A stretch of DNA of 24,037 bases, from the IMG/VR virus record IMGVR_UViG_3300020379_000508, positions 1-24,037 of that record; one strand, written 5' to 3'. The position numbers and the translations under genes were made by a program. Below the pieces are notes generated by a model, which was not told the origin of the DNA, made no database searches, and saw nothing but the letters and a program-made list of their open reading frames with translations. Shown here piece by piece: positions 3,058-11,927 of this stretch (position 1 is the first letter of the stretch; each line of letters opens with the position of its first letter). Origin of the DNA: a virus (lineage: Duplodnaviria > Caudoviricetes).

Positions 3058-4378
3058 AACTTATACTAGAAAAGTAATACCTTTTGTCAAGTCTGAGTAT
3101 TTCACCGAATCATCTGAAAAACTAGTATTCGAAGAGATAGTAAACTATTTCGAAAAGTATACTAAAAGTCCTACAGTTGAAGCACTTCTCATTAATCTTG
3201 ATAATGTGACTTCGAAAGGAGATGCAATAGTCAAGTCCTCAAAACAACTTGTAGAAAACATCAAAGCAGATGATACACCTTTAGATTGGTTGATAGATGA
3301 AACTGAAAAGTGGTGCAAAGATAGAGCAATCTACATTGCAGTCATGGACAGTATAGAAGTCTTAGACGAGAAATCTAAAAGGTCAACTGGTGAAATACCA
3401 GACTTACTCAAAGACGCTCTCTCAGTATCATTCGATACACATATTGGTCACGACCAGTTAGAAGATGCTGACGAGAGATTTGAGTTTTACAATACAGAAG
3501 AAGAGAAGATGCCTTTTGATCTTGAATATTTCAACAAGATTACAAAAGGTGGTCTACCTAACAAGACACTAAACATTTGTCTGGCAGGAACTGGTGTTGG
3601 TAAATCATTGTTCATGTGCCATATGGCATCTAACTGTTTACTCATGGGTAAAAATGTTCTTTACATTACTATGGAGATGAGTGAAGAAAGAATCGCAGAG
3701 AGAATTGATTCTAATGTTATGAATGTGCCAATGAAAGAACTGCCAGATATATCCAAGAAAGAATATGATAAGAAGATTGAAAGAATCAAAAACAAAACAA
3801 CAGGAAAATTAATCATCAAAGAATATCCTACAGCAGCTGCTCATGTGGGACATTTCAGACATTTACTACAAGAACTAAACATTAAGAAAGATTTTAGACC
3901 AGACATAATTTTTATTGACTATCTAAACATTTGTGCATCACATAGAATCAAACCAGGTTCAGGTGCAAACTCTTACACACTAGTAAAGAGTATTGCAGAA
4001 GAACTTAGAGGTCTTGCAGTTGAACATGATGTGCCTATGGTATCTGCAACTCAGACTACAAGAAGTGGTTATGGTTCTACAGATATCGGTTTAGAAGATA
4101 CATCAGAATCTTTTGGTCTGCCTGCAACTGCCGACTTAATGTTCGCACTGATTACATCAGAAGAACTAGAAGACTTAGACCAGTTGGTTGTCAAACAGTT
4201 GAAAAACAGATATAATGACCCTACAATTTTCAAAAGATTTGTAATTGGTATTGATAGAAGTAGAATGAAACTGTATGATGTAGAACAAGAAGCACAAGAA
4301 GAATTGATTGATAGTATAGATGTTGATGATACACCAGTATTTGATAGGAGTGAAAAGTTTAGAGACTTTAAAGTATAA
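3008..4378 (+). CDS. 41: Replicative DNA helicase gp41 (DnaB-like)
   Basis: Walker [51 protein letters not shown]; overlaps uvsX by 50 nt. Confidence 0.97.
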
Positions 4379-5655
4379 TGGAACCATTTGTTCAGAAACA
4401 ATACGATGAATATAAGGCAAACTATGTCGAGAAAGAGGTCATGTCAAAATATGATCTTCGACAAAGAATCATTGACGACTTATCATATGTTTCTAAAATG
4501 AGTGTTGGTGAATACACACTGTATCAAAAGTATCTAGAAATACAACAAAGATATCCTTCACAAGAAATGGGCACATTATTTGGTGCATCAAAACAGTTAG
4601 TCAATGAAGACCATATCAAACTAATTAACGAAAGTAAAAACAATATTTGGTTTCCAGAAGACCCTATGGACTTTGAGAAACTAGAACCTGAATTAATTTA
4701 CACTGATCTAGATAACGACAGACAATCAGCAGGTTCTTGGCCAGAGAAATGGAATTGTGTAAGAACATTTACTTCTACTATGAAGAACAGTTCTAATATA
4801 GGTCGTAATCTACATTACATAGTCAGAGATAAAGTCACAGGCAAATATCTTGGTGTTATCTGTATCACAGGTGACTTCATTGACTTGACACCTAGAGATG
4901 ATTACATCGGGTGGGAAAGAGAATACAAAACAAATAGTGGTAAACTAAACAACACTTGTATTGGTTCTACAATAGTGCCATTACAACCACTAGGTTTTAA
5001 TTACACAGGTGGTAAATTACTTGCACTACTTTGTCTATCAGATGATATACAGAATCAATGGCAAAAGAACTACGGAGATAAACTTGTTAGTGTGACAACT
5101 ACATCTTTATATGGTAAATCTAAAACAGGTGGTCTATCACAATACGATAGACTCAAACACTGGAAGAAAATGGGTTACAGTAAAGGTTCTTTATCATATG
5201 AGTTGACAAAAGAAACAGAAAAGGAAATGTTGAAGTATGCAGAGAAACATTACAACGACAGATACTTTATGTTATATGTTGCGAAGAGAGAGAATGGCCA
5301 GACATTGAAAAGAGACCACAGAAATCGTATGAGACAGTTCATTTATTCACAACTTAAAATACCAAAAGATATTATTAAGTCAGAACATCAAAGAGGCATA
5401 TATTATTCTACACTTTATGATAACTCACGAGAGTTTCTTAGAGGTGAGATAGAAGAGAAAGATTTAGTAAAGTCTTTTGATACATCTACTGAGGCATTAT
5501 CAGAATTGTGGAAAGAAAGATATGCGAGAAAAAGAATAACCAATTTAGTCAAGAATGACAGAACAAATCTTACAGAGACATTGTTCTATGATGATGTTTG
5601 TTTTATGTCATGGGCAGAGACTAAAGAAAAATATTTAGGAGAAGTAGGAAGATGA
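4378..5655 (+). CDS. DUF4338 / Druantia DruA-like protein
   Basis: GRNLHYIVRD...LGVI, RDDYIGW, IVPLQPLG.NYTGGKLLALL, VTTTSLYGKS, SQYDRL..W..MG.SKG resemble the DruA/DUF4338 family (recognised from memory); coupled to gp41 stop. Confidence 0.7.
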   Translation: MEPFVQKQYDEYKANYVEKEVMSKYDLRQRIIDDLSYVSKMSVGEYTLYQKYLEIQQRYPSQEMGTLFGASKQLVNEDHIKLINESKNNIWFPEDPMDFEKLEPELIYTDLDNDRQSAGSWPEKWNCVRTFTSTMKNSSNIGRNLHYIVRDKVTGKYLGVICITGDFIDLTPRDDYIGWEREYKTNSGKLNNTCIGSTIVPLQPLGFNYTGGKLLALLCLSDDIQNQWQKNYGDKLVSVTTTSLYGKSKTGGLSQYDRLKHWKKMGYSKGSLSYELTKETEKEMLKYAEKHYNDRYFMLYVAKRENGQTLKRDHRNRMRQFIYSQLKIPKDIIKSEHQRGIYYSTLYDNSREFLRGEIEEKDLVKSFDTSTEALSELWKERYARKRITNLVKNDRTNLTETLFYDDVCFMSWAETKEKYLGEVGR

Positions 5656-6764: not shown

Positions 6765-7004
6765 ATGAAAAAAGTAAGTATAAAAGGTTTCCCAATCTAC
6801 AATGGCGTTGTCAATGACGGTGCTATCATAGAGATACCTATACCAGCAGACTTAGTAGAATTGGCTTTAGATAAAAGTCAAGATGAGGGTGCTAAATGGG
6901 ACTTAATGTGTTCTAAATTACCAGAATATGGTTTTATGAACCCTATCGGTAAAATGTCTATAGAAAAAATTTCTATAGATGGTGAATGGAAGGATTTCCA
7001 CTAA
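6765..7004 (+). CDS. Hypothetical protein (early)
   Basis: 79-aa ORF directly after the promoter, TAATG-coupled to the next gene. Confidence 0.75.
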   Translation: MKKVSIKGFPIYNGVVNDGAIIEIPIPADLVELALDKSQDEGAKWDLMCSKLPEYGFMNPIGKMSIEKISIDGEWKDFH

Positions 7005-7468
7005 TGAGAAAAGAAAGAATTATTAATCAAAAAATTATCTTCGATATAGACGGCACTATTGCCGATTGTGAACATCGTAGATGTTTTGTTGATGGTTCAC
7101 AAGCAAAAGATTGGGACAGATTTAGAGAAGAGACAGTAAACGATACACCTATTCAATGGGTATGTGATATCGCAAAAAGATTCATTGCAAGTGGTGATGA
7201 TGTTGCATTCTTTAGTGCAAGAAACGAATCACAAAGGGAGATCACCGAGAAACAAATCTCAGACTGGATTGGTGATGGTCATAAAGGAGTATTTTTAAGA
7301 CCAGATGGTGATTACAGAAGTGATGTTGAGTTCAAAAGAGAACTTGCAAACAAGTTTTTAGATATGGGTGGCAAAATCGATCTTATCTTCGATGATAGAC
7401 AATGTGTTGTTGATATGTGGAGAGATGAGGGTTTTGTAGTAGTTCAAGTTGCAGACGGAGATTTTTGA
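7004..7468 (+). CDS. HAD-family phosphatase, stand-alone T4 PseT/PNK 3'-phosphatase-like domain
   Basis: IFDIDGTIAD (DxDGT), SAR, D..K, FDDRQCVVDMWR match the phosphatase half of T4 polynucleotide kinase; start 7004 from TAATG overlap. Confidence 0.88.
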   Translation: MRKERIINQKIIFDIDGTIADCEHRRCFVDGSQAKDWDRFREETVNDTPIQWVCDIAKRFIASGDDVAFFSARNESQREITEKQISDWIGDGHKGVFLRPDGDYRSDVEFKRELANKFLDMGGKIDLIFDDRQCVVDMWRDEGFVVVQVADGDF

Positions 7469-7647
7469 TGAAACAGTTATGGCACGATTACATGAATTAC
7501 TTTGATATCCTGGATGACATACAAGAAGATGGTCAAATAAATATGTTTGAGGCACCTAGAGTGTTAAGAGATATGTTTGATTTAGATAAACAAGAATCAT
7601 TCGCAATAGTTGAAGAGTGGATGAAATCTAAAGAAAAAAAAGTATAG
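7465..7647 (+). CDS. Small conserved-looking phage hypothetical protein
   Basis: 60 aa, GGAG SD, overlap with upstream stop; LD.....G.INMF.A...L...F.L......I..EWM pattern that I recall from small phage proteins. Confidence 0.75.
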   Translation: MMKQLWHDYMNYFDILDDIQEDGQINMFEAPRVLRDMFDLDKQESFAIVEEWMKSKEKKV

Positions 7648-7664
7648 TTTTTTTCGCCAAAAGG

Positions 7665-7694
7665 TTGACAATGACATCGCTTTTTTCGTATACT
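7665..7694 (+). promoter_or_regulatory. Strong sigma70-type promoter driving an ORF-free transcript
   Basis: TTGACA (7665-7670), 18-nt spacer, TATACT (7689-7694), with A/T tracts upstream (UP-element-like). Confidence 0.85.
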
Positions 7695-7700
7695 ATCCAT

Positions 7701-8062
7701 AGTGAGATAACACTTAAACATCAAAGGGCTTGAAAGTGCGACCTTTTAAAAATTAGAGAAACTTTCCTTGACAAGACATTGTTTAAAGCAGTCTGGGTAG
7801 CGCAAGAATGGTGAGGAGAAGGAGCCCCCTCCCCTACTTTAAACAGTTAGACAAGAACAGAACACTGCTTATTAGGTATTGGATGGATGTAGTTCTTGTT
7901 GACCGTAAGGTTGGTCTAAGTGTTTCGGCAGAGCGCCGAGTTCTGATAGACCTATTCAAAACTTCAGAACAATAATTGCACATGTCGATTGTTTAGTAGA
8001 ATCTGACGACATAGAAAAACCAAAACTACTCTTAAAAACCACCTTTTCAAGGTGGTTTTTTT
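7701..8062 (+). ncRNA. Candidate structured non-coding RNA (~350 nt), family not recognised
   Basis: No + strand ORF in the track; own promoter and terminator; perfect nested stems 7709-7716/7917-7924, 7780-7788/7837-7845, 7851-7858/7892-7899, GACC-GTAA-GGTT tetraloop hairpin 7901-7912, 7925-7929/7935-7939, 7940-7946/7964-7970, 7982-7987/8007-8012. Confidence 0.7.
8034..8062 (+). terminator. Rho-independent terminator (possibly bidirectional)
   Basis: AAAAACCACCTT-TTC-AAGGTGGTTTTT TT: perfect 12-bp inverted repeat ending in a U tract. Confidence 0.9.
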
Positions 8063-8074
8063 GTTATATAATGG

Positions 8075-8082
8075 GATAAATA
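8075..8082 (+). promoter_or_regulatory. T4-type late promoter variant GATAAATA
   Basis: Immediately after the terminator, 10 nt before ATG 8093. Confidence 0.55.
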
Positions 8083-8092
8083 GAATTATATC

Positions 8093-8266
8093 ATGAAAAA
8101 CTTGAAATCTAACGAAGTAATTAATCTAATATCTCAAAAAGTCAAATTGAAGAGAGAACTTCGTTCATTCAAACAAAGCGGTGACAACCGCAAAGCAGAA
8201 GTCGTTTTACTTAAAATAGACCAAATAAACGAAAAACTACACTCACGCCCGCTCTCAAAAAACTAA
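8093..8266 (+). CDS. Small basic hypothetical protein (57 aa, not in the ORF track)
   Basis: Manual translation MKNLKSNEVINLISQKVKLKRELRSFKQSGDNRKAEVVLLKIDQINEKLHSRPLSKN*; fills the gap between two late-promoter motifs. Confidence 0.65.
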   Translation: MKNLKSNEVINLISQKVKLKRELRSFKQSGDNRKAEVVLLKIDQINEKLHSRPLSKN

Positions 8267-8269
8267 ATA
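8262..8269 (+). promoter_or_regulatory. T4-type late promoter variant ACTAAATA
   Basis: Overlaps stop of 8093 ORF; followed by AGGGGG SD and ATG 8291. Confidence 0.55.
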
Positions 8270-8290
8270 GTAGTATCACAGGGGGATATT

Positions 8291-8656
8291 ATGGGTGTAA
8301 ATACAGATTGTAAAAACGAAAATCTAGGTTTTAAAGATTATTTTCAACAGTTGAAAAATGCCTTATTAGCAGTCAAAGATGACATTCTACTCGATGAAGA
8401 ACTAACTGCAAACGGTTATACTACAACTACCAGTAGAGGATTGAGGGGTTTCATGGATAATTGGAGAACCGATAATCCTACATCAGATGGCACTGCAAAT
8501 GATAATGATGCGATATTGTATGAATTGTGGCAGTTTTGCGAATCTAAAACTGACGATGAATTGTATGCTTTATCACCACATTACGACTCTATCATTGCAG
8601 AATTCCAAACTAAAATAGATCATTACCAAGCTTTGATTGACGGTGGCGAAGATTAA
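8291..8656 (+). CDS. Hypothetical acidic protein
   Basis: 121 aa, good SD, no recognised motif. Confidence 0.8.
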   Translation: MGVNTDCKNENLGFKDYFQQLKNALLAVKDDILLDEELTANGYTTTTSRGLRGFMDNWRTDNPTSDGTANDNDAILYELWQFCESKTDDELYALSPHYDSIIAEFQTKIDHYQALIDGGED

Positions 8657-8665
8657 TACAATGTT

Positions 8666-9877
8666 ATGGCAGTCAAAAACTTACATTTAGAACATCTAGA
8701 AGACGAAATCATCAATAATGGTATTGATGGTGGTCGTGCAGCTATCAACTTTGTAAGATCACTTAGAGATATGATGAAAGGCAACTCTAAGTCAAAAGTC
8801 AACATGACTGTAAAATGGGATGGTGCGCCAGCAATATGGGCAGGAAAACATCCAGAAGACGGCAGATTCTTTGTCGCAAAGAAATCACTATTCAATAAAA
8901 CAGAACCACTTTTCTACACATCAGAATCAGAAATCAAAAACGCATCAGAGTTATCTGGTGATCTAGAAACTAAGTTCTTAGAATCATACAAGTATCTATC
9001 AAAATTATCATGGGGTGATAATATATTTCAAGGTGATCTAATGTTTACAGATAGTGATAAGAAAGAACAAACAATAGACGATGTAGACTATATCACATTT
9101 CAACCTAACACAATACTCTATGCAATACAAAAAGACAGTAAATTAGGTCAAACAATTGACAACGCAAAATACGGAATAGTATTTCATACATCATATTCTG
9201 GTGGCACCATTGAAGATTTAAGTGCCAGTTTTGGCGTAGATATATCTACACTTGGAGCCTCCAACGATATCTGGTTAGATGATGCATCATACAAAGATGT
9301 ATCAGGTAATTCTACATTGACTGCAAAAGAAACTCTTACATTAACAAAGTCATTGACAAATACAGGTAAAGCATTTCAAAAAATTAAACGAGCAACACTG
9401 ATTAAGTTTCAAAAAGTGCAAGAAACTATTGCAACAAAAGGTGCAGGCGCCACATACAAAACATATGTCAATGCACAGATTCGTAAAGGTAAATTTGATT
9501 TATCTTACAAGGCATATCTAAAACATTTTGATGACTATTGGAAGAAAAGTGTAGTTGGTAAAGTCAAGTTAGAAAAAACAAAAGAACAAAAAAGACAAAT
9601 GGGCAAACAACTAAGAAGTGAATTACTTTCGATGAGAGTTTTTATAGATGCATTGACCATATTTCAAACTGAATTAGTAATTGCAAAAGATGTAGTGATA
9701 AAAGGTTTAAACAAGGCAAAATCAGTTGGCACATTTGTAAGAACAGACACAGGATTAAAGACTGTAAATCCAGAAGGATATGTTGCGATTGATAAAGAGG
9801 GTAAGGCAGTGAAGTTGGTAGATCGTATGGAGTTCTCACTAAATAACTTTACAGTTGCTAAAAATTGGGACAAGTAA
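8666..9877 (+). CDS. RNA-ligase-like covalent nucleotidyltransferase-fold protein (DUF6267-like)
   Basis: HLEHLED N-terminus; motif I VKWDGAPA (KxDG), III FQGDLMF, IIIa VFHT, IV PEGYV, V VKLVDR, in the order expected for the ligase/capping superfamily. Confidence 0.75.
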   Translation: MAVKNLHLEHLEDEIINNGIDGGRAAINFVRSLRDMMKGNSKSKVNMTVKWDGAPAIWAGKHPEDGRFFVAKKSLFNKTEPLFYTSESEIKNASELSGDLETKFLESYKYLSKLSWGDNIFQGDLMFTDSDKKEQTIDDVDYITFQPNTILYAIQKDSKLGQTIDNAKYGIVFHTSYSGGTIEDLSASFGVDISTLGASNDIWLDDASYKDVSGNSTLTAKETLTLTKSLTNTGKAFQKIKRATLIKFQKVQETIATKGAGATYKTYVNAQIRKGKFDLSYKAYLKHFDDYWKKSVVGKVKLEKTKEQKRQMGKQLRSELLSMRVFIDALTIFQTELVIAKDVVIKGLNKAKSVGTFVRTDTGLKTVNPEGYVAIDKEGKAVKLVDRMEFSLNNFTVAKNWDK

Positions 9878-10635
9878 TGCATAGTTTTCTAGAATACTTA
9901 ACAGACGAATTGACAACCATACTTGCAGAGGCAGGTGGTGCAGCTGCTGGTAAGTTAGAAGTATTATCTACATCTCTAAACATTGCAAGAAGTTTTGCAG
10001 AAAAAAAATTCAGTGCAAATAATTTAGAATTAGACAAAGAACTTCCTAATTTTGATAAGAATTACACACTCGCACAGAGACAGGCAAAATTAGGATTCGC
10101 AAAAAGAAAAGATATGCCTGTAATTTCTAACAACGATGTAAAATTATTACAAAAAAGATTATCAAAAGGCACTATAGACATAAACAAACCTTTTGCAAAG
10201 AATGATCTTCCTGACGACCCATATCCAGATGGATTGACTAAAGATACAGGTAAAGTATGGGTTAGTAGTGGTCTTAAAAAAAATGATGGCGATGCAAAAG
10301 ACGATATAGTAAAAGTATCAAATGAGAGAATTGCAGTTGGTAATTTAAAACCAATACAGGCACAAATATACTTTGATAAATCTATCAAAAAGGTATCTAA
10401 AAGTGGTGTAGAATCTTCTAAAAACTTTTTGACATCAAAGTTTAATAACTTTGTAGTTTCAAAAGATAACAGAATTATAGATGGCCATCATAGATTCTTG
10501 ACAACTGTTTTAATTGACCCAAAGATTAAAGTTAATTGTTTGAAGATAGATTTGCCTATCAAAGAATTATTACCATTGACACTTACATATACAGATGCGA
10601 TAGGAAATGTTAGAAACGAGGAAAAGAATAAATGA
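9877..10635 (+). CDS. ParB/Srx-like domain protein with capsid-targeting-like N-terminus
   Basis: LKPIQAQI...VVSKDNRIIDGHHRF ParB-N signature; N-terminus MHSFLEYLTDE...ILAE; start 9877 from TAATG coupling. Confidence 0.75.
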   Translation: MHSFLEYLTDELTTILAEAGGAAAGKLEVLSTSLNIARSFAEKKFSANNLELDKELPNFDKNYTLAQRQAKLGFAKRKDMPVISNNDVKLLQKRLSKGTIDINKPFAKNDLPDDPYPDGLTKDTGKVWVSSGLKKNDGDAKDDIVKVSNERIAVGNLKPIQAQIYFDKSIKKVSKSGVESSKNFLTSKFNNFVVSKDNRIIDGHHRFLTTVLIDPKIKVNCLKIDLPIKELLPLTLTYTDAIGNVRNEEKNK

Positions 10636-11927
10636 AAACATTTACAAGATTTTTAGCCGAAGCAAAAGATAGACCAGCAGTCTTTTCTTTTGGTCGTTTT
10701 AATCCTCCTACAACAGGTCATGCAAAACTAGCAGACAGACTATCTAAAGTTGCAAGAACAGCAGGTGGTGACCCTATAATATTTTCTTCACATTCTAACG
10801 ACAAGAAAAAGAATCCTTTACCACACAAAGTCAAAGTAAAATATCTCAGAAAGTTTTTTGGTAGAAAGATAGGTGTGCCAGATATAAGTGCGAGAACTGT
10901 ATTTGATATTGCAGTTGCATTATATAATCAAGGATACAGAGACATATACATGGTCGTAGGTTCAGATAGAATCAAAGAGTTCGATACATTACTAAACAAG
11001 TATAACTCAGTAAAAGGTCGACATGGTTTCTATAAATTTGATACTATACAGATAGTCAGTGCAGGTGAAAGAGATGCAGATGCAGACGATGTTTCAGGCA
11101 TGAGTGCAAGTAAGATGAGGGCATTTGCTGACAAAGGTGACTTTGATTCATTTAAACAAGGTGTGCCATCAAAAAATGCCAGAGAGGCACAACAATTATA
11201 TAAAGATGTTCGTAAAGGTATGGGCATCGCAGAAGGAACATTACCTGAATATATGATGGAAGACTTGATTACAGAGGGTGTATATGACCCAGGTATATTC
11301 AAGGCAGTATTTCTCATGGGTGGTCCTGGTTCTGGTAAATCTACAGTTGTCGATGGTCTATCATTATCAACACTAGGTCTTAAAAAGGTAAACTCAGATA
11401 GAGCATTTGAAATAGGTTTGAAAAAGGCAGGTCTTAGTTTAGATTTGAGAAAGACGCCTGAACCAGTCAAAGAACCTATCAGAGCAAAGGCAAAAGGTTT
11501 GACAGCAGCTCAGTTAGATGGTTATCTTGCAGGTCGATTAGGTGTCATCTTCGATACAACATCAGCAAACACAGCTAAAATCAAAAAGTATAAGAAAAAC
11601 TTAGATGCATTAGGTTATGAATCTAAAATGATCTTTGTAAATACAAGTTTAGAGTTCGCACAACAGAGAAACGAGGCAAGACCTAGAAAACTTGCACCTG
11701 CAATTGTTCAACAAGAATGGGAAAAAGTGCAGAAGAATATGAAAACTATGGTAACATTGTTTGGTAGAGATTTCATGACAATAACAAATGATGACACATT
11801 CGAGGCATTACAGTTGAAAACAAATAGATTATATGGTAAGATGATGACATGGGTTTCATCGTTTCCTGGTAATAAGACCGCAACTGCATGGAAAGAGGCA
11901 CAATTAAATTTAAAAAAGAATAAATAG
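10632..11927 (+). CDS. HIGH-superfamily (cytidyltransferase-like) nucleotidyltransferase fused to a P-loop kinase (zeta-toxin/AAA_33-like)
   Basis: FGRFNPPTTGH, KNPL, VVGSDR, SAGERD, MSASKMR; second domain AVFLMGGPGSGKS, VNSD, IFDTT, RNEARPR; N-terminus MKTFTRFLAE. Confidence 0.85.
   Translation: MKTFTRFLAEAKDRPAVFSFGRFNPPTTGHAKLADRLSKVARTAGGDPIIFSSHSNDKKKNPLPHKVKVKYLRKFFGRKIGVPDISARTVFDIAVALYNQGYRDIYMVVGSDRIKEFDTLLNKYNSVKGRHGFYKFDTIQIVSAGERDADADDVSGMSASKMRAFADKGDFDSFKQGVPSKNAREAQQLYKDVRKGMGIAEGTLPEYMMEDLITEGVYDPGIFKAVFLMGGPGSGKSTVVDGLSLSTLGLKKVNSDRAFEIGLKKAGLSLDLRKTPEPVKEPIRAKAKGLTAAQLDGYLAGRLGVIFDTTSANTAKIKKYKKNLDALGYESKMIFVNTSLEFAQQRNEARPRKLAPAIVQQEWEKVQKNMKTMVTLFGRDFMTITNDDTFEALQLKTNRLYGKMMTWVSSFPGNKTATAWKEAQLNLKKNK
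11919..11926 (+). promoter_or_regulatory. T4-type late promoter variant AATAAATA
   Basis: 5 nt before ATG 11932; no SD. Confidence 0.6.

Follow-up and report, generated by a model that had tools for sequence, protein, structure and literature searches.

The 24,037-nt window (the whole stretch of viral DNA that was analysed) contained a single gap of more than 100 nt separating + strand ORFs, at 7648-8092, and the question raised by this locus was what such a gap might encode. The sequence-only reading had taken it for an independently transcribed, highly structured non-coding RNA of unrecognised family, and its description of the surroundings as a lone long ORF-free gap between promoter and terminator was borne out. 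The near-consensus sigma-70-type promoter-like site (TTGACA-18-TATACT, 11 of 12 matches) was present at 7665-7694 on the + strand, with a predicted start near 7701, and the perfect intrinsic terminator was found as a 12-bp stem with a T run 3' of it (8034-8060, + strand), invariant in 13 of 13 sequences. The G+C content was higher than in the flanks as claimed, the rise being mild (0.40-0.435 across 7700-7999 relative to 0.31-0.38). The promoter block TTTTCGCCAAAAGGTTGACA was conserved in relatives L001, L020, L045-48, L092, L095, L123 and L145, and more loosely in L148/L150. The proposed position at an early/late boundary was supported by a T4-type late-promoter-like sequence, GATAAATA, at 8075-8082 on the + strand (ATAAATA at ~8076-8082), which lay just 5' of the next ORF (8093-8266) and read TATAAATA in most relatives; the late-promoter consensus quoted in the Methods of PMC9004378 is TATAAAT. 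A second promoter-like site, TTTTCA-17-TATAAT (8044-8072), was located between the terminator and the downstream ORF. Control of the downstream genes in cis, by a leader of the riboswitch or attenuator type, was rejected, since promoter-like sites separate the terminator from the ORF and no alternative pairing with a terminator arm was seen in the predicted folds.

The element matched no known family. Searching the whole window with the Rfam 15 covariance models gave no match at the gathering score, and ARAGORN detected no tRNA or tmRNA genes in the window, in agreement with the RNA having been called unrecognised. At E<=10, the region 7550-8200 produced terminator-like noise only: the highest score was 28.8 bits (gathering score, 49), and the terminator hairpin drove the three best alignments. 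An Rfam scan of 17 related loci returned tRNAs only, and no tmRNA was found by ARAGORN in 48 related loci. Literature searches on marine myovirus non-coding RNA and on the GOLLD and ROOL phage RNAs yielded no description of the present RNA, and blastn of the gap and of its long form (below) against 50,697 GenBank phage records gave no match. The mechanical, ATG-initiated ORF of 55 codons at 7808-7975 (+ strand) was broken by in-frame stops or a lost start in 9 of the 10 full-length relatives, its variable sites (11, 12 and 9 on codon positions 1, 2 and 3, respectively) were without codon periodicity, and it matched nothing in Pfam or PHROG; a protein-coding gene was rejected on the grounds of the broken frame and the missing periodicity. 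Regions of the L033 type at the same locus were rejected as a second long ORF-free family, as they encode a ~490-aa lipoprotein that has an LSACGGGG lipobox and is conserved with a period of 3; the coding stretch L033:1433-3227 likewise had no blastn match among the 50,697 GenBank phage records. A CsrA-type sponge was also rejected, GGA occurring 4 times relative to 5.5 expected, without enrichment.

Conservation of structure was assessed in an alignment of 13 distinct homologues, taken from contigs of viral and metagenomic origin, with a mean column identity of 89%. Out of 917 helix cells in the 13 distinct sequences, 99.5% were paired, in a structure that had been drawn with knowledge of the same sequences later scored for covariation. 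Changes on both sides that preserved pairing were found in 10 base pairs, distributed over 8 of 10 helices, compared to 0 in all six slid-partner controls, and none of 500 shuffles reached the observed compensatory value. Many of the compensatory changes were shared by descent, and independent events were fewer than the cell counts suggest. Of the local hairpins of the sequence-only reading six, including the GTAA hairpin and the three hairpins said to follow, were supported by compensatory changes in the 13 homologues. The identical helices were 91.6% paired when read on the - strand, relative to 99.5% on the + strand; the difference lay in 72 G·U cells, which pair only as + strand RNA and thus indicated the + strand. 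By these comparative criteria the gap is a structured non-coding RNA of the + strand, with at least seven predicted helices of its main domain, here called module B (7778-8033), kept by compensatory changes.

From 5' to 3' on the + strand, module B began with a P1 domain (7778-7847), in which an 11-bp closing helix (7778-7788/7837-7847; 100% of cells paired, two pairs changed on both sides, A-U/U-A and G-C/A-U) enclosed a 48-nt interior with only 4 variable columns. Within this interior, a purine-rich strand with GGAG repeats opposed a C-rich one in a candidate hairpin, P1b (7814-7835), with two A·C mismatches and invariant in 13 of 13 sequences. The P1 interior was the most conserved block, and being without variation it provided a candidate fold only. 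The covarying P2 domain (7850-7900) consisted of an 11-bp helix (7850-7860/7890-7900), a conserved internal loop, GAACAC / UUGGAUGGAUG (GAACAC / UUGGAUG as RNA), and an inner hairpin, P2b (7863-7869/7875-7881); in its helices, 3 and 4 in the alignment, three pairs had changed on both sides. The P3 hairpin (7901-7912; A-U to G-C in L122) was capped by a tetraloop that varied as GUAA, GAAA and GAGA among homologues, staying GNRA. It was followed by the linker GGTCTAAGTGTT (7913-7924), invariant in 13 of 13 sequences, by the P4 hairpin (7925-7939; G-C to U-A and G-C to G·U in 3 sequences), and by the P5 hairpin (7940-7970), with a 7-bp stem (A-U/G-C covariation, 8 sequences relative to 5) and a 17-nt loop in which one position varied. 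GGTCTA at 7913-7918 in the linker was complementary to TAGACC at 7947-7952 in the P5 loop, making this pairing a candidate pseudoknot. The last helix, P6 (7982-7987/8007-8012, spanning 7982-8012; helix 8, A-U/G-C covariation), had a variable interior, inside which six relatives carried an extra palindromic hairpin (helix 9, with an A-U/U-A swap in L117).

Longer-range pairings fared less well. The 8-bp stem 7709-7716/7917-7924, the 3' arm of which lies in the linker, was invariant wherever both arms were present; about one such match was expected by chance, and each arm was also conserved in RNAs lacking the other. The multibranch domain that this stem was said to close was not supported. A tertiary pairing between AAGCAGT and ACTGCTT had been suggested and was broken in L001, L123, L092 and others, and the suggested loop-loop pairing of TAGGT with ACCTA did not hold in L125, L121 or L122. 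All stem coordinates had been given correctly. The description as highly structured was not upheld by the window's own sequence, as + strand folding was no better than that of shuffled controls (minimum free energy z-scores of -0.33 for 7695-8062 and +0.12 for 7777-8030); 7900-7975 alone stood out thermodynamically (z -2.74). The - strand folded better than the + strand (z -2.6 to -2.75), because there P1b would form a perfect helix that includes G·U pairs. Perfect 8-mer inverted repeats numbered 4 relative to 1.03 expected, a borderline excess (P = 0.052).

Comparison with relatives indicated a modular architecture, a feature new here that the sequence-only reading had missed. In the window, a 5' leader that is A-rich and predicted to have little structure (module A, 7701-7776, + strand; minimum free energy z +1.17) was joined directly to module B. 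Module A was also recognised in L045-48 (~84% identity) and in L145 (93%), both of which have a core of ~900 nt instead of B as the next segment, and its 3' half was retained in L148/L150. The order of segments was A, core and a different module, C, in L045-48; the end of the core and then B in L002 (from the same metagenome as the window); and the core followed directly by a terminator in L148/L150, while L044 carried a C-like module, D, alone. L145, the neighbouring phosphatase gene of which shares 96% identity with that of the window, had the promoter and A followed by the core. The core covaried on its own (145 pairs, 20 changes on both sides relative to 1-4 in slid controls), and modules B, C and D shared one hairpin motif, in which the internal loop of P2 was conserved within three different closing stems, the other two being those of module C (L045-48) and module D (L044). 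The short form was seen in six contigs (the window, L001, L020, L095, L123 and L092) and RNA-library contigs bridged the A-B joint (X1, 6848-8013; X4, 7699-7928), so that it is not an assembly artefact. In P2 of the short form L092, and of no other sequence, a C-G pair had changed to U-A, which argues for continued selection in short forms. On this sequence comparison, the element of the window is the short form (~330 nt) of a modular RNA of ~1.2 kb (predicted long forms, ~1.15-1.25 kb) from related uncultured marine T4-like phages. The family was narrow: of 79 related viral loci, 3 were found to carry B, as were 12 metagenome contigs, and a P1-P3 covariance model run over the window and 46 related loci (370 kb) recovered the window's own copy only.

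Two other accounts of the core were rejected. It is not an intron between A and B, as it also precedes C, or directly a terminator; its joints are without group I or II boundary signs. Neither is it a degenerate tRNA array, a T-arm stem being found at only 1 of 10 TTCRA sites. A long-form module at L047:2019-2096 comprised an acceptor stem, a T arm and an ACCA end, and scored 21.6 bits relative to a tRNA gathering score of 29.

RNA-library contigs from four studies contained parts of the element. Three began before the predicted start (X1 at 6848, X12 at 7607 and X4 at ~7686), and the contigs alone therefore do not establish a discrete transcript, or the independent transcription put forward in the sequence-only reading. 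Upstream-gene read-through or DNA carry-over was a possible source of these contigs. The terminator was crossed by two contigs (X4, 7983-8169; X2, 8010-8069), four runs of study P1 stopped at 7978-8013, ahead of the terminator, and 8177-8419 had no contig coverage in any of the 8 RNA-library runs, and X9 yielded no aligned contig, all of this being evidence from assembled contigs, which cannot show absence, starts, ends or levels, the proposed abundance included.

The genes around the element included a Pnkp-type phosphatase (6986-7468) and a nucleotidyltransferase-kinase fusion (10632-11927), which by sequence look like RNA-end-healing enzymes. The neighbour that had been called RNA-ligase-like was a DUF6267 gene (8666-9877), and the label was not sustained: the protein, with invariant KWDG and EGYVA motifs, had no significant match to solved structures by sequence or profile, no significant fold match and no second Pfam family. 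Its AlphaFold model (mean pLDDT 68.6) retrieved nothing by Foldseek at E<=0.001, the insignificant top rows including T4 RNA ligase 1 and other nucleotidyltransferases, and its Atlas matches were to unnamed clusters only. DUF6267 identity to the nearest cultured relatives, Melnitz and pelagimyophages, was 51% and 44%. The window showed no Ro/Rsr gene.

Taken together, the locus encodes a + strand structured non-coding RNA, the short form of a modular phage family, that is likely to be free-standing and to bind a putative partner. Transcription would start early at the sigma-70-type promoter and stop at the terminator, a short way ahead of the late-promoter-like site, giving a transcript organised as an operon-like string of separable RNA domains; in the window's phage the core would have been lost and B retained under selection. 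The never-varying parts, namely the interior of P1, in which the GGAG repeats lie, the internal loop of P2, the loop of P5 and the linker, may be contact sites for a protein or for another RNA.

An unlikely alternative, although the best placed of those considered, is that the element acts in cis, as a 3' end element of the early transcription unit without any trans function, protecting the 3' ends of upstream early mRNAs and insulating the early region from the late promoter. Terminator prediction found none separating the element from the genes upstream, RNA-library contig X1 runs unbroken across 6848-8013, modules B, C and D all end in a terminator directly 5' of late-promoter-like sequence, and in L044 the last hairpin ahead of such a sequence is the shared motif itself, with a U run after it. 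However, ~250 nt with seven covarying helices and invariant loops far exceed what 3' protection needs, a conserved promoter-like site lies directly upstream in several contexts, and a ~900-nt core with long-range helices is part of the RNA unit.

We considered it distinctly improbable that the RNA is a machine of RNA only, either a self-processing ribozyme or a multimer of the GOLLD/ROOL kind, with the invariant loops as RNA-RNA contacts. Such a reading would suit a phage-borne, ornate RNA with a long form exceeding 1.1 kb, the 6-nt complementarity of the invariant single-stranded segments 7913-7918 and 7947-7952, a metatranscriptome contig (X11) in which B is enclosed by complementary flanks, and the tRNA genes carried at the locus in relatives, outside the RNA modules. 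It is opposed by the maintenance of the short form without the core and by the lack of any ribozyme, GOLLD or ROOL match in Rfam (E<=10 in the window, E<=1 in L047). Somewhat less probable again is a functionless remnant left after deletion of the core from a larger RNA gene, for which short repeats of the ATTT type at both core joints and the presence of the core in the 96%-identical relative, relative to its lack in the window, could be cited; but the six short-form contigs are mutually diverged, changes in short forms are compensatory rather than free (L092, L123), and promoter and terminator are intact.

We give very little credence to three further readings. The first, that the 55-codon ORF is a gene for a small protein, is opposed by the broken frame. 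The second is that a gene found at this locus in relatives (a lipoprotein of ~490 aa or a 425-aa ORF) has decayed here; a remnant of either was rejected, as a tblastn search of the gap with the locus proteins returned no match with E below 0.15. The third is a replication origin, which in T4 is in some cases a promoter followed by an A+T-rich stretch; GC skew was positive over the entire window with no switch at the element, on which basis an origin was rejected.

More tentatively than the free-standing RNA of the favoured reading, A, the ~900-nt core and B may together constitute a new ornate RNA of ~1.15-1.25 kb built of exchangeable modules, with the mini form as an autonomous domain of ~250 nt and a decoy or scaffold as a possible role. 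Nature has provided a dissection of such an RNA (A+B; A+core+B; A+core+C; core only; and a ~130-nt form keeping the shared hairpin motif), and these natural variants show pieces able to fold and survive alone. The early/late boundary, the RNA-end-healing-like neighbours and the tRNA locus suggest a possible role in phage-host RNA conflict. If this is true, the mini form isolates the autonomous domain at a tRNA and RNA-repair locus of the phage, and the RNA could be a decoy or scaffold in a conflict over the ends of host and phage RNAs.

Among known systems, the T4 tRNA gene cluster encodes two small stable RNAs, species 1 and 2 (rnaC/rnaD), which likewise are non-tRNA RNAs at the tRNA locus of a T4-like phage and are much shorter. 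With YrlA (RF02553), an RNA of bacterial RNA-repair operons, the element shares the context of RNA-end-healing-like neighbour genes; the match, at noise level (21.5 bits relative to a gathering score of 69), was to the tRNA-like module of the long form, outside the short form of the window. The OM43 phage Melnitz and pelagimyophages have a two-piece tmRNA behind an early promoter (PMC9004378). The present element is similar in being an RNA gene behind an early promoter-like site and in having, in its long form, a module with an acceptor stem, a T arm and an ACCA end, and differs in that no tmRNA match was obtained with ARAGORN or Rfam, no tag frame was seen and the short form is without the tRNA-like module. 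The carriers are T4-like phages, the nearest cultured relatives of which infect OM43 and SAR11 bacteria. Large structured RNAs of unassigned role are rare, and several of them, such as GOLLD and ROOL, are carried by phages. GOLLD and ROOL are located near tRNA genes, and the locus of the present element likewise has tRNA genes in relatives; GOLLD, at ~800 nt, is shorter than the long form. In kind the element is closest to GOLLD and ROOL and a member of neither. It resembles them (10.1101/2024.12.08.627333; PMC5737381) in being phage-borne and ORF-free with many covarying helices; unlike them, it matches no Rfam model, is modular and is carried by marine T4-like myoviruses.

The stretch 7648-8092 is the sole gap longer than 100 nt between + strand ORFs of the window. 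As proposed by the sequence-only reading, which had placed a structured non-coding RNA here, it holds a sigma-70-type promoter-like site (TTGACA-18-TATACT at 7665-7694, 11/12 matches) and a terminator (8034-8060, a 12-bp stem followed by a T run), and every stem listed for the RNA was found where it had been placed. The rise in G+C that had been described was present but mild (0.40-0.435 in the element vs 0.31-0.38 in the flanks). A T4-type late-promoter-like motif lies 3' of the terminator (GATAAATA in the window, TATAAATA in most relatives; the late-promoter consensus is given in the Methods of PMC9004378), and the element therefore sits at the early/late boundary, as had been suggested. A T-run/CGC/A-run palindrome (TTTTTCGCCAAAAGG) is conserved immediately 5' of the -35 hexamer in every context (7648-7664 in the window; upstream of TTGAC in the related locus L148), and may be either a weak hairpin or an UP-like element.

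In the window sequence alone, structure was not above chance. Folding no better than that of shuffled controls had been named as a result that would count against the RNA, and this was what the + strand gave (MFE z = -0.33 for 7695-8062 and +0.12 for 7777-8030), while perfect 8-mer inverted repeats numbered 4 vs 1.03 in shuffles (P = 0.052). The z-scores of the - strand were lower (-2.75 and -2.64), mainly because two A·C mismatches of the invariant helix P1b (7814-7835) become G·U pairs on that strand. Judged on this alone, the RNA would be rejected; comparison with relatives overturns that verdict.

Viral relatives were sought via the DNA around relatives of the neighbouring gene DUF6267 (244 pattern matches, 240 of which encode a relative; 79 loci kept). 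The right-hand part of the gap was found in 3 of the 79 loci (L020, 100% identical; L001, 96.6%; L002, 85%, with similarity starting only at ~7779), and L045-L048 share with the gap only its left-hand 127 nt, at 84% identity. Scanning metagenome contigs with an exact 18-mer of the most conserved block gave 59 stretches, 12 of which were homologous by nhmmer. For module B, the right-hand part (7778-8033), 13 distinct sequences were aligned, the window included, and pairs were counted across them in ten helices, among them, on the + strand, P1 (7778-7788/7837-7847), P2 (7850-7860/7890-7900), P2b (7863-7869/7875-7881), P3 (7901-7904/7909-7912), P4 (7925-7929/7935-7939), P5 (7940-7946/7964-7970) and P6 (7982-7987/8007-8012). 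Standard pairs occupied 99.5% of 917 helix cells. The covariation that had been put forward as a check was found, with 10 pairs in 8 helices changed on both sides, none in six slid controls, and observed values reached by 0 of 500 shuffles, in an alignment of 89% mean column identity where many changes are common by descent and the helices were drawn with the same sequences in view. An extra hairpin inside P6 in six relatives covaries too, P1b and the terminator do not vary, and the P3 loop (GUAA, GAAA or GAGA) is GNRA in every case. The RNA strand of module B is the + strand, because 72 G·U cells become mismatches on the - strand (pairing 99.5% vs 91.6%); each helix that covaries favours the + strand.

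The main new point is modularity: the gap contains two modules that also occur apart. Module A (7701-7776, 3' of the promoter) is followed by a ~900-nt core, not by B, in L045-48 and in L145, a contig that is close to the window (adjacent phosphatase gene 96% identical in DNA) and ends inside the core. L002, from the same metagenome as the window, opens with the core's final 145 nt, after which come B, its terminator and the genes that follow, and this type of core-to-B joint also occurs in seven metagenome contigs. Other arrangements were A, core, a 3' module C (167 nt, different from B) and terminator in L045-48; core preceded by a promoter region of its own and the 3' half of A, and followed directly by the terminator, at the matching locus in a phage that is more divergent (L148/L150); a C-like module D alone (~130 nt), directly after the phosphatase gene, in L044; and B (7774-7996) between complementary arms in X11, one metatranscriptome contig. 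Modules B, C and D have a hairpin motif in common (CAC, a short hairpin, UUGGAUG), with closing stems wholly unlike in the three (GACAAGAAC/GUUCUUGUY, AAUGAUG/CAUCAUU and AACCCAC/GUGGGUU). In L148 (+ strand as stored), a second ORF-free stretch of ~300 nt (~3180-3490), 3' of the core's terminator and with its own terminator, precedes a HAD-phosphatase-like and an orf57-like gene; judged by sequence, it may be another small RNA.

The element is a folded + strand RNA domain with purifying selection on its structure and modular combination. It would be made as an early transcript, starting at the conserved promoter and ending at the terminator, and the long form, with the core, would be a string of separable RNA domains and not a single indivisible fold, since core and B are each also found where the other is absent. 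The invariant parts (P1 interior, P2 internal loop, linker and P5 loop) may be contact surfaces for a partner. Taken whole, this reading is probably correct, with the doubt mostly on the trans-acting step. Of the long-range pairings previously suggested, the stem AACACTTA/TAAGTGTT (7709-7716/7917-7924) is invariant in every sequence carrying both arms, an 8-bp match being expected about once by chance; its 5' arm is kept in L045, which is without B, and is wholly absent from L148/L150, and its 3' arm is kept where core, not A, adjoins B. The two proposed tertiary pairings did not hold up, AAGCAGT/ACTGCTT being disrupted in six relatives (L001, L123, L092, L117, L119 and L002) and the loop-loop pairing TAGGT/ACCTA in three (L125, L121 and L122). 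Another candidate pairing joins GGTCTA (7913-7918) to the complementary TAGACC (7947-7952) of the P5 loop, both invariant.

Parts of the element were present in RNA libraries of four studies, as assembled contigs from which starts, ends and levels are unreadable. In study P1, contigs of four runs end at 7978-8013, shortly before the terminator, and 8177-8419 had no coverage by assembled contigs in any of eight runs. In the library X12, the contigs of the A-to-core and core-to-B joints had word depths of 45 and 68, and the phosphatase gene had one of 2.2. What speaks against a discrete unit is contigs that start upstream of the predicted start (X1, unbroken from 6848; X12, at 7607; X4, at ~7686) or span the terminator (X4, 7983-8169; X2, 8010-8069), which could stem from read-through from upstream genes or from DNA carry-over. 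That the element acts in cis, as a 3' end and insulator, is rather unlikely.

The long form of the modular RNA (promoter, A, core of ~900 nt in which long-range helices covary, C, terminator) extends over ~1.15 kb in L047 (1860-3065) and is also found in L045, L046, L048 and L145-L150. The L047 stretch has no + strand ORF above 48 codons, no Rfam match and no GenBank phage match; in the core, the ORF tool likewise gave no + strand ORF above 48 codons, and no frame stays open for more than 77 codons. In the last ~690 nt of the core (8 sequences), 145 predicted pairs were 97.6% paired, and 20 were changed on both sides vs 1-4 in slid controls. Its 5' part contains a tRNA-like module (L047:2019-2096) with an acceptor stem, a perfect T arm (GCAGG-TTCGAAT-CCTGC) and an ACCA end, in which ARAGORN recognised no D or anticodon arm and Rfam scores were sub-threshold (tRNA, 21.6 bits vs 29; YrlA, 21.5 vs 69). 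An RNA-only ribozyme or assembly is improbable.

The window is a natural short form, with A joined to B. An assembly artefact was rejected because six mutually differing contigs carry the short form, RNA-library contigs span the A-B joint, and one short form (L092) has a private compensatory change. That the short form is a deletion remnant without function is quite improbable.

A coding gene, a decayed gene or an origin is scarcely credible. The 55-codon ORF (7808-7975) was rejected as a gene: of 10 full-length relatives, 9 have stops in frame or have lost the start, and the remaining one, L095, does not differ from the window across the ORF. Its variable sites by codon position 1/2/3 numbered 11, 12 and 9, and it had no family match.

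RNA modules occupied only 8 of the 79 viral loci (L001, L002, L020, L044 and L045-48). Others carry at the same place tRNA genes (Arg, Ser, Ala, Asp), a 425-aa ORF or a ~490-aa lipoprotein gene, which in many relatives encodes ~480-507 aa with an LSACGGGG lipobox and is often beside tRNA-Arg (L033:1707-3227; L074:77-1513; L011:2296-3789; L057:1494-2966).

The window, a fragment of 24 kb (completeness 14%, CheckV estimate), comes from an uncultured virus and has all its long ORFs on the + strand and gene content of T4-like myovirus type, including a UvsX-like recombinase, a DnaB-like helicase and NifU; the ORFs at 115-912 and 4378-5655 encode, between them, a Mom-like DNA modification protein (E = 5.9e-48) and a DruA-like protein of the Druantia family (E = 1.4e-20). 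A Pnkp-type HAD phosphatase (6986-7468, +) and a cytidylyltransferase-like domain fused to a Zeta-toxin/AAA_33-type P-loop kinase (10632-11927, +) look like a split RNA-end-healing set. DUF6267 (8666-9877, +) is nearest, among cultured phages, to OM43 phage Melnitz (51% identity) and Pelagibacter phage HTVC008M (44%), followed by many cyanomyoviruses (37-39%). Its invariant motifs KWDG (residues 50-53) and EGYVA (370-374) resemble covalent nucleotidyltransferase motifs I and IV (ligases, capping enzymes), with unusually wide spacing relative to these enzymes and, in the model, a long helical insert (residues 220-350). Solved structures gave no significant match by sequence or profile, and Foldseek with a mediocre AlphaFold model (mean pLDDT 68.6) had no hit at E<=0.001, its insignificant top rows including T4 RNA ligase 1 and other ligases; the earlier label 'RNA-ligase-like' is a lead.

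The family had been described as unrecognised, and the window had no match to Rfam 15 at gathering score. At E<=10, the alignments of the three best matches in 7550-8200 depend on the terminator hairpin, and the other 15 were weak and to assorted unrelated families. Rfam scans of 17 related loci gave tRNAs and nothing else, ARAGORN gave nothing on the window, and GenBank phages had no DNA similar to the gap. The literature searched (full-text), GenBank phage records and Rfam gave no description of this RNA. The element is a new family of a kind already known, that of ornate RNAs from phages without known function.
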